DNA from: a virus
Taxonomy: Duplodnaviria > Heunggongvirae > Uroviricota > Caudoviricetes
Strand: one strand, 5' to 3'
DNA length: 27,567 nt
Virus record (IMG/VR): IMGVR_UViG_2695420708_000004
In this document: one piece after another, positions 24,901 through 27,567 of the stretch
Position numbering within the stretch: position 1 is the stretch's first letter
Layout: each line of letters starts with the position of its first letter
Program-made: the position numbers

Positions 24901-27567
24901 AGGAAACTGGACGACTGCACAGTTTATCGAGTGGCTGGATTCTCAGGGAGCATTTAACCATCCATACTGGATGTGCAAGGGTTCCTGGTCTTATGGCAAT
25001 AATAAAATCATTACTGATACTGGCTGCGGTAATATTCATCTCGCCGGAGCTGTCATTGAAGTAATGGGGATAAAGTCAGCGATGACGATCCGCATTACCA
25101 CTCCGACCACATCCAGCGGTGGCGGAACAACCAACGCCCAGTTTACCTATATTAATCACGGAACAGATTATTCACCTGGCTGGCGAAGGGACTATAACTC
25201 CAGAAATAAGCCAACGGCATCAGAGATCGGGGCGCTACCGTCAGGTGGAACAGCAGTATCATCAGTTAATCTGGCTTCAAAAGGTCGGGTAGCCGCGCTG
25301 ACAGACAATACGCAGGGGGCAGCAGGTCTTGAGTTATACGAGGTGTATAACAACGGATATCCAACAGCGTATGGAAATATCATTCACCTGAAAGGGATGA
25401 CAGCCGTTGGCGAAGGTGAGTTACTCATCGGCTGGAGTGGTACAAGCGGTGCTCATGCTCCGGCATTTATTCGTTCACGACGGGATACGACCGACGCAAA
25501 CTGGTCGCCGTGGGCGCAGCTTTACACCTCGGCTCATCCTCCTGCAGAGTTTTATCCAGTCGGTGCACCAATCCCGTGGCCATCAGATACCGTTCCGTCT
25601 GGTTATGCCCTGATGCAGGGGCAGACTTTTGACAAATCTGCTTACCCGAAACTTGCAGCCGCTTATCCGTCAGGCGTGATCCCTGATATGCGTGGCTGGA
25701 CGATTAAGGGCAAGCCCGCCAGTGGTCGTGCCGTATTGTCTCAGGAACAGGATGGCATTAAATCGCACACCCACAGCGCCAGCGCATCCAGTACGGATTT
25801 GGGGACGAAAACCACATCGTCGTTTGATTACGGCACTAAATCCACGAATAACACCGGGGCGCATACGCACAGTCTGAGCGGCTCTACAAGTTCAGCTGGG
25901 GCCCACCAACATAGTCAGACTGGGCCCAGAACGAATAGCGGGAGTCAACCTACTGGAATGTTTCCGGCAGGGAGTACTCAAGTTAGCGGGACTAATCAGG
26001 TTGGTATCAGTGGCTCATTAACCAGTGGCACCTCCCAATGGGTAGGTAAATCATCTTCAGAAGGAAACCATACACACTCACTGTCCGGCACAGCAGCATC
26101 TGCGGGTGCACACGCGCATACTGTCGGTATTGGTGCTCATACGCACTCTGTTGCGATTGGTTCACATGGACACACCATCACCGTTAACGCTGCTGGTAAC
26201 GCGGAAAACACCGTCAAAAACATCGCATTTAACTATATTGTGAGGCTCGCATAATGGCATTCAGAATGAGTGAACAAGCACGGACCATAAAAATTTATAA
26301 CCTGCTGGCCGGAACTAATGAATTTATTGGTGAAGGTGACGCATATATTCCGCCTCATACAGGTCTGCCTGCAAACATCGTGGCATCTCGTTGAAGATCA
26401 TCGGGGTAAAACGGTTTATGACGTGGCTTCCGGCGACGCGTTATTTATTTCTGAACTCGGCTCATTACCGGAAAATGTCACCTGGTTATCCCCGGAAGGG
26501 GAGTTTCAGAAGTGGAACGGCACAGCCTGGGTGAAGGATACGGAAGCAGAAAAACTGTTCCGGATCCGGGAGGCGGAAGAAACAAAAAACAGCCTGATGC
26601 AGGTAGCCAGTGAGCATATAGCGCCGCTTCAGGATGCTGTGGATCTGGAGATCGCAACGGAGAAAGAAACCTTGTTGCTGGAAGCCTGGAAAAAGTATCG
26701 GGTGTTGCTGAACCGTGTTGATACATCAACTGCACCGGATATTGAATGGCCAGTAGCACCTATAGGGTAAATTCGTAATGATTACCTAAATACGTTATTC
26801 TTTTGTTAAAAAAGTGATTTTGCTATAGGTAGGGAGTATGTTCTTGGATTAAGAATAAAAAATCGCCATGAAAGAGCTTCATGGCGAGTACATAAACGTA
26901 CAAAATGTGATGAAAGTAGAGTGGCGTAAGCCACTATATTAAGATATGACAATAGCGAAGAAAAGTAAATAACATTTTATGGACGTTTAATTGTTAATTA
27001 TAAAAACTAGAGTGCCCGATATTGTTTATCTTGCTTTAAAATAATGTACTCAAACCAAATTTTTGAGCTAAAAGCTCAAATAATATAAATGCAATAATAA
27101 TGTTTAATAAGACAATTAGCTTGCTTTGTATTTTCATTTCGGAATACTGTTAAGTAACTTTGATGACCCTAACAATAGATCGGAATTTTCTTAGAGTCAA
27201 TGGTCACTGTTTTTGCTTGCAAAGCAAATGTTTTGGTGGTTATAAGTTGTCTTAATATAGTCACGCATGCAACTTGTTCCATGCGGAGATTAAAGATTGG
27301 AATATAACGCGAAGATGGAATTAAATTACATTTGCAATAATGAATTTATTATTACTCAATAATTACCGATATTATTATTGTAAATTAATCATTAGAGTGC
27401 AAAAAGAAATGTAACGGCAAAATAAGAGGACGATAGCTGAGAAAAAAGCGTGCTTTCCCAATCTGGGGCAAATCACGTCTGAATGACACCTGAAAACAGG
27501 TGGTAGCCTCAAGAAGGCTGGTGATGCTGCCAACTTACTGATTTAGTGTATGATGGTGTTTTTGAGG

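Follow-up and report, generated by a model that had tools for sequence, protein, structure and literature searches.

A recent 65-bp deletion in the tail fibre assembly gene tfa beside an intact stf in a lambda-like prophage of Shigella sonnei

The DNA analysed here, the virus record IMGVR_UViG_2695420708_000004 of IMG/VR (27,567 nucleotides, in the following termed the window), is a region of a lambda-like prophage of Shigella sonnei in which tfa, the gene of the tail fibre assembly chaperone, has become a pseudogene directly behind the side tail fibre gene stf. It represents the complete draft contig CXAP01000051.1 (27,567 bp) of the short-read assembly GCA_001260795.1, as established via an exact match of its J protein. 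The lesion in tfa is a single deletion of 65 bp, with CA as a 2-bp microhomology. It is polymorphic inside S. sonnei, being a minority variant which is confined to the 53G-type sub-lineage, with the intact allele still common in the species. Very probably, the window carries a recent, lineage-restricted null allele of tfa which leaves the fibre protein Stf without its chaperone.

Structure and reality of the tfa lesion

In the window, tfa lies immediately 3′ of stf, with overlapping stop and start codons and a GAGG motif upstream. The features of this module are given below.

23171..26254, plus strand: stf, intact, 1027 codons from the ATG at 23171 as set by gene callers; the list of open reading frames (ORFs) extends it to a GTG at 23165 (1029 codons)
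26240..26256, plus strand: translation start of tfa, with a GAGG Shine-Dalgarno motif and an ATG overlapping the stf stop codon TAA (TAATG, 26252-26256); sequence context GTGAGGCTCGCATAATGGCA
26254..26394, plus strand: 5′ fragment of tfa, consisting of 41 native codons, five out-of-frame codons (IVASR) and the stop codon TGA at 26392-26394, from the raw sequence and the ORF list
26375..26378: deletion junction, with a CA microhomology at 26376-26377 assignable to either side, from alignments in which the blastn flanks overlap by 2 bases
26378..26770, plus strand: 3′ fragment of tfa in the +1 frame, Tfa residues 64-193 and stop codon, holding the Pfam Caudo_TAP region in full as well as the C-terminal helical hairpin

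The 5′ fragment opens with MAFRMSEQ, stays lambda-like through GLPAN and then runs into IVASR. An open stretch of the +1 frame extends from 26291 to 26770, with the remainder of Tfa encoded from 26378 onward and ending in VAPIG. The raw sequence and the ORF list thereby bear out the sequence-only reading of this DNA, according to which the tfa frame ends after 46 codons and the remainder continues in another frame. Alignments with orf-194 of phage lambda (J02459) and with tfa of phage ev099 revealed a 65-column gap as the sole structural difference, which corresponds to codons 42-63 of lambda Tfa (22 codons) minus one base. The same reading had estimated that about 22 codons are lost between LPAN and SWHL and that one extra nucleotide is left, and the two alignments agree with it on both counts. 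The flanks align without other gaps except in the final few codons, the mean column identity being 93% with the gap counted, and the 65-bp gap was also seen in the alignment with intact tfa alleles of S. sonnei. Since CA is found at both ends of the lost segment, the deletion has a microhomology of 2 bp.

The ORF that contains the 3′ fragment (26318..26770) matches the Pfam model Caudo_TAP (PF02413) over positions 1-130 of 131 with an E-value of 2.3e-44. This match to the whole model identifies the 3′ piece as the genuine remainder of a gene and not as a chance ORF; for the 46-residue piece, a weak precomputed match to Caudo_TAP_N is listed. The comparison with lambda indicates the same gene: nucleotide identity is about 95% on both sides of the gap, Caudo_TAP is shared, and lambda tfa occupies the same place right after stf with overlapping stop and start codons. 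The two differ in that the window allele is 65 bp shorter and no product of 193 or 194 residues is possible from it. A Tfa protein of the lambda type is encoded by a single frame of about 190-205 codons comprising both domains, and this is not found in the window. By sequence, domain and position, the window tfa is thus a member of the Tfa family, yet it is classified as a pseudogene because the continuous frame is missing. As a separate observation on this part of the gene, the Rfam family IS009 (RF02111), a candidate small RNA of E. coli, matches in full length at 26532..26730 on the plus strand with 218 bits. This match lies wholly inside the 3′ coding part of tfa, and the family overlaps the tfa coding sequence.

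Recoding was considered as an explanation and rejected. A programmed frameshift of the kind known from lambda G/GT or IS1 insAB′ does not apply, as the relatives listed have tfa in a single frame and the two-frame state is caused by the deletion. No shift other than +1 would be of use, the sequence TCT CGT TGA A is not slippery by inspection, and the shifted product would still be devoid of residues 42-63.

The junction is not particular to the window. In public assemblies, exact copies of the 46-residue tfa product were found in 31 index blocks and those of the 150-residue product in 104, HE616528.1 being included in them. This record is a finished chromosome of 4,988,504 bp which carries the identical tfa junction, and it belongs to S. 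sonnei 53G of lineage II (PMC5447701). According to Table 1 of the same publication, S. sonnei drafts with CX-prefixed accessions come from the collection of Holt et al. 2012, and the accession of the window begins in the same way. In the annotation, the 46-residue product is named ‘phage tail protein [Shigella sonnei]’ (109 contigs) and the +1-frame product ‘tail fiber assembly protein [Shigella sonnei]’ (104 contigs). Eight deletion-type loci including 53G match the window through the junction, with one or two base differences each over 4.3-5.9 kb. A second genomic setting of the 46-residue gene (locus L006) was dismissed, as it turned out to be a scaffold join with an N at L006:3260.

These data also bear on the question whether the frameshift is a sequencing or assembly artefact of a draft contig. 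The window does stem from short reads and contains one suspicious join elsewhere (lom′::′J, 20273/20274). The finished 53G chromosome and all eight deletion-type contigs compared share the identical junction, and the chance of an artefact is practically nil. As the junction is shared by independent assemblies, the tfa frameshift is a real, inherited allele. A frame restored upon re-sequencing, which the sequence-only reading had named as a refutation, is not to be expected for this lineage, given the identical junction in independent assemblies, a finished genome among them.

Distribution of the deleted and intact alleles

All phage and E. coli homologues among the matches listed span 65 bp more than the query and are annotated as an intact tail fibre assembly gene; the phage matches show 95-97% identity. 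A first query of 91 bp across the junction was uninformative, as its halves seed separately and are then rejoined. A k-mer covering the junction reads CAGGTCTGCCTGCAAACATCGTGGCATCTCGTTGAAG. A 40-mer centred on the junction was matched by none of 5,426 complete E. coli genomes, and an exact 37-mer by none of 185,579 species-representative genomes. Likewise, the junction was not seen among the phage hits, since the joined hits all consist of two pieces and are 65 bp longer than the query.

Within S. sonnei, both alleles occur. The 1027-residue Stf was found with identical sequence in 3,688 index blocks, and among the 35 longest contigs carrying it, 32 are of the intact type (tfa of 193 residues, or 189 residues as called) and three of the deleted type. 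Five chromosome-length records (CP104423.1, CP146298.2, CP044151.1, CP046286.1 and CBDDMI010000001.1; 4.8-5.0 Mb) contain the same prophage with an intact tfa of 193 residues. Upstream of the junction, they are identical to the window over 4,707 bp, a stretch covering the end of J, lom, stf and the 5′ part of tfa, and they differ from it by one to four bases over the 1,192 bp downstream. One of them, CP044151.1, has the 53G-type haplotype over 5.9 kb save for the 65 bp, which points to one recent deletion on that haplotype. Position 27342, downstream of tfa, has three alleles among otherwise near-identical haplotypes: the window has G, the 53G type and CP044151.1 have C, and the majority has T. 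The frequency of the deleted allele can be gauged from contig counts, 109 for the 46-residue Tfa product (P0016) versus 861 for the S. sonnei-specific truncated Lom of 160 residues that serves as a marker of the prophage. Roughly a tenth of the assemblies with the prophage would thus have the deleted tfa, an order of magnitude only, as gene callers differ.

The adjoining stf gene is intact. Its product contains the Pfam domains phage_tail_N, Phage_fiber_2 (a fibre repeat) and Collar, and it is collinear over residues 1-1027 with side tail fibre proteins of the isolated phages PhiR68_2, PhiR42_1, PhiR26_1 and mEp460_ev081, with identities of 92-94%; the Ala/Ser-rich middle was masked by the search filter. 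The earlier statement that stf is intact is upheld by these 1027 continuous codons, which run end to end with fibre genes of isolated phages. The S. sonnei clone is said, in work by Holt and colleagues from 2012, to be only a few centuries old and to evolve at about 6e-7 substitutions per site and year. At such a rate, a gene of 3 kb accumulates well below one change over the age of the clone, and an identical Stf in thousands of assemblies fits this young age. The intactness of stf is therefore the default state in a young clone and is no evidence of retained function or selection. In the same way, an intact stf beside a broken tfa is the expected outcome of one recent mutation and not a meaningful asymmetry.

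Consequences for Tfa and for the side tail fibre

The native start of tfa is the only good ribosome entry site of the gene. In the +1 frame, the candidate starts are ATG 26318 (150 residues, beginning with 20 foreign ones), three non-ATG codons that follow closely, and GTG 26423, which lies 29 bases past the TGA and yields a product of 115 residues without the first eight positions of Pfam Caudo_TAP. Among all internal starts listed for this frame, none has a Shine-Dalgarno-like motif better than GGA. The lost segment itself is well conserved: in an alignment of 31 full-length Tfa homologues (189-205 residues, 77-98% identity), conservation of at least 90% is seen at 16 of the 22 deleted positions, and nine of these are invariant (T43, I45, P47, P48, G53, A56, V57, F58 and N59). 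An AlphaFold model of the intact S. sonnei Tfa, used for the placement of secondary structure only, consists of a beta-rich region (10-116) with confidence values (pLDDT) of 39-67 and a helical hairpin (118-175, comprising helices 118-152 and 158-175), most of which has pLDDT above 90. In this model, the deletion takes out a loop and the strand 54-59, and the frameshift splits off the strands 10-18 and 23-32.

What is known of the chaperone family gives meaning to these losses. Lambda Tfa helps the Stf trimer to assemble, and its residues 62-192 resemble Mu Tfa (PMC7291167). In the sections of PMC9608196 dealing with the family, the fibre is described as bound by the variable N-terminal domain of Tfa, with trimerisation proceeding via the conserved C-terminal helices, and a passage of PMC8174754 states that the Mu fibre is produced only with Tfa co-expressed. 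The conclusions of North et al. 2019 and of North and Davidson 2021 are given here as they are rendered in passages of PMC9608196, PMC8174754 and PMC10579305.

On this basis, we propose the following course of events. In one sub-lineage, to which the lineage II reference strain 53G belongs, one deletion of 65 bp between two CA dinucleotides has removed codons 42-63 of tfa and shifted the frame. After stf, ribosomes would restart at the overlapping ATG of tfa, yield a peptide of 46 residues and then terminate. Within the other 130 codons, no start codon is preceded by a ribosome-binding site, so that hardly any C-terminal product, or none at all, would be expected, and any such product would be without part of the N-terminal beta region, the fibre-binding part in the chaperone family. 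Stf would still be translatable yet without its cognate chaperone for folding and trimerisation. Particles, if still made by the prophage, would have no side tail fibres and would adsorb via J alone, like laboratory lambda. Loss of the chaperone activity of Tfa and failed fibre assembly would be expected from knowledge of the family, and Stf may be functionally silent, which agrees with the literature on these chaperones (PMC7291167, PMC8174754, PMC9608196).

Several systems are available for comparison. The cryptic prophages of E. coli K-12 hold decayed remnants of tfa, namely tfaD, tfaS and tfaX, which are old truncations in heavily deleted prophages. Like in the window, a chaperone gene was inactivated there in the course of the decay of a resident lambdoid prophage. 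The window differs from them by a single recent lesion, by an intact allele circulating in the same species and by an adjoining stf of full length. In laboratory lambda (lambda PaPa), stf carries a frameshift (Hendrix and Duda 1992, as cited in passages of PMC7291167 and PMC3945230). This is likewise a frameshift in the stf-tfa module, after which the side fibres are expected to be lost and adsorption by J is left, but there the fibre gene is hit, whereas in the window the chaperone gene is affected by a 65-bp deletion. Moreover, lambda PaPa is a laboratory stock, whereas the window allele belongs to a natural clonal lineage of a pathogen, for which the phenotype is an expected one. Finally, residues 126-191 of lambda Tfa align with residues 112-174 of Mu Tfa (gpU; PDB 5YVQ chain B) with an E-value of 8e-9. 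Mu Tfa belongs to the same family, with a fibre-binding N-terminal domain and conserved C-terminal helices according to the part of PMC9608196 on this protein, but the sequences of the two do not allow their N-terminal regions to be aligned. Mu lacks a counterpart of the first 61 residues of the lambda-type Tfa, among which part of the deleted segment falls (PMC7291167).

Some observations stand against this explanation. The window holds only the late region of the prophage. The full Caudo_TAP region and the helical domain are undamaged in the +1 frame, and restart at a low level at ATG 26318 or GTG 26423 is conceivable from the sequence. The position of the deletion inside a folded domain of Tfa is tentative, as the N-terminal half was modelled with pLDDT values of 39-67 only. 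Furthermore, E. coli genomes with matches contain a median of two and up to eight tfa-like places, and S. sonnei genomes have many prophage regions in common, several being lambda-like (PMC5447701). These last two facts lead to the most serious rival explanation, which is compatible with a dead tfa gene: a related Tfa from another resident lambda-like prophage would assemble Stf in trans, and stf would not be silent. The left part of the contig (to 20272) indeed matches a second lambdoid haplotype with its own lom, stf and tfa, and gp38 of phage T4 is reportedly replaceable by lambda Tfa, an observation of Montag and Henning from 1987 which speaks for cross-activity within the family. However, two prophages would need to be induced together, and the N-terminal fibre-binding domain is described in the relevant part of PMC9608196 as variable and fibre-specific, so that a paralogue has to match the tip of Stf; we regard this explanation as unlikely. 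Much the same evidence on the 3′ fragment raises the question whether this fragment, translated alone from the internal ATG 26318 or after restart at GTG 26423, might suffice for fibre assembly. It retains the complete Caudo_TAP region and both long helices in an open frame, GTG 26423 follows the TGA at only 29 bases, and full-length Mu Tfa resembles residues 62-192 of lambda Tfa (PMC7291167). On the other hand, the in-frame starts have no Shine-Dalgarno motif better than GGA, the ATG product begins with 20 foreign residues and the GTG product lacks the first eight Pfam positions, and both lose two N-terminal strands, the strand 54-59 and 16 highly conserved positions. Sufficiency of a C-terminal fragment made from an internal start, an outcome already envisaged in the sequence-only reading, finds no support in a frame without a usable Shine-Dalgarno sequence and in a fragment without part of the conserved N-terminal beta region, and it is hardly to be expected. 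That the fibre is still folded, be it via the Tfa of a co-resident prophage or via a restarted C-terminal Caudo_TAP fragment, appears quite improbable.

A further explanation concerns the cause and not the effect of the loss, namely that the loss of side fibres was selected, since less avid adsorption spreads better in structured habitats, as with stf null mutants of lambda. In plaques, a biofilm-like setting, lambda with side fibres repeatedly gave rise to large-plaque mutants, of which 19 of 21 mapped to stf, 15 of these being frameshifts (PMC2762979), and the same growth advantage is cited by De Paepe et al. (PMC3945230). Yet such a pressure acts on replicating phage and not on the resident prophage of a clonal host, and none of the 21 large-plaque mutants of lambda mapped to tfa (PMC2762979). 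In addition, the allele is a marker of a minority sub-lineage, as predicted by drift and hitch-hiking, and the adjoining lom has decayed too. Selection for this allele is accordingly very doubtful, and we infer neutral decay of tfa. A recent null allele which deprives Stf of its chaperone thus remains the explanation we prefer.

The decaying prophage and implications of the allele

In the window, tfa is one of several genes or sites hit in a decaying prophage of a host rich in insertion sequences (IS), and the deletion is the most recent of these lesions. The head and tail genes, from the small terminase gene to J, are present as full-length ORFs. The other damaged or interrupted places are the following.

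1..38, minus strand: end of an IS2 at the left contig edge, between the iss/bor region and cos in the iss/bor-ylcI spacer, with a 100% match to annotated IS2 copies
22590..23072, plus strand: lom pseudogene with a frameshifting deletion of 83 bp between CTGGCG repeats, junction at 23061-23066, encoding 160 instead of 199 residues
27520..27567, plus strand: left end of an IS1 at the right contig edge, 750 bp 3′ of tfa

The closest relative in E. coli is a complete lambdoid prophage of strain 104 and others, located at the lambda attachment site (ybhC / ybhB-bioA). Its lom (199 residues), stf (1133 residues) and tfa (193 residues) are all intact, and the same IS1 follows tfa. The truncated Lom of the window covers positions 1-159 of the 199 positions of the Ail_Lom model and has lost the last strands of its beta-barrel. 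Unlike the tfa lesion, this lesion was found across S. sonnei including strain Ss046 (P0046, identical with Q3YZL0_SHISS, 861 contigs). In the E. coli relatives, an annotated IS1A transposase begins 8 bp past the matched stretch. As this IS1 insertion is shared by 280 E. coli genomes that have the related prophage, it predates S. sonnei. The spacer between tfa and IS1 (26771..27519, 750 bp) is AT-rich, with a GC content of 29-35%, and has no annotated gene in the RefSeq relatives.

At the left edge, IS2 lies upstream of cos and physically interrupts the late operon. Positions 39-138 of the window match the iss-ylcI spacer of the E. coli 104 prophage, and positions 139..745 are not found in this relative. 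This stretch includes an ORF on the minus strand (207..632, 141 residues) with a full-length match to PHROG 413, annotated as ‘head protein’ (E-value 1e-89); both its orientation and its location just upstream of cos are unusual for a head gene.

Further observations concern the gene J, which is partly duplicated in the window (16612..22519). A full J of 1159 residues is encoded at 16612..20091. In a second J ORF at 20159..22519 (786 residues), the first 38 codons of a lom are fused in frame to J codons from about 418 to 1165, the lom′::′J join having no microhomology. The repeated 1.79 kb of J (17864..19652 and 20274..22062) are 98.3% identical, the receptor-binding domains at the ends of the two copies being different. 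To the left of the join, FUDB01000057.1 and FTSW01000047.1 match the region 12612..20272 with 99.99% identity; the lom-stf module of these two contigs is a different one. From 20274 on, the window has the sequence of the standard S. sonnei haplotype. The draft contig of the window is the only one in which the join was seen. An exact look-up of the fusion protein gave no match, although the protein is listed on the window contig, the index being incomplete for it. The join is either a real illegitimate recombinant in which the tip of J was swapped, or a chimera.

The prophage of E. coli strain 104 has a peculiarity of its own. An island of about 11 kb (L005 18732..31074, NZ_CP029164.1 4046731-4059073) interrupts the major capsid gene there and has integrase, primase, capsid and decoration genes of its own together with a cos-like stretch matching positions 1076-1334 of the window. 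It looks like a capsid-forming phage satellite integrated in the capsid gene of its helper.

In a literature search combining S. sonnei, tail fiber assembly and pseudogene, no paper describing the allele was found. The allele is apparently undescribed but represents a routine kind of event, an ordinary case of recent gene decay without a new mechanism. For annotation, it means that a single pseudogene underlies two ORFs of S. sonnei records, its halves being listed there as ‘phage tail protein’ and ‘tail fiber assembly protein’. Provided that a single origin is borne out by phylogenetic mapping, the junction could be used as a lineage marker. Should the fibre not be silent after all, S. sonnei strains naturally paired for the two alleles on identical haplotypes would reveal how large a portion of the N-terminal part is required in a lambda-type Tfa, as well as the degree of promiscuity among these chaperones. 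When fibres of S. sonnei prophages are used for host-range engineering, they should be paired with tfa from a strain with the intact allele. Although of little importance beyond bookkeeping, the allele is a clean and datable case of a prophage gene decaying in a pathogen clone that is young and rich in IS, and the near-isogenic natural pairs of S. sonnei strains offer a simple way to test the dependence of a lambda-type Stf on its chaperone in cis.

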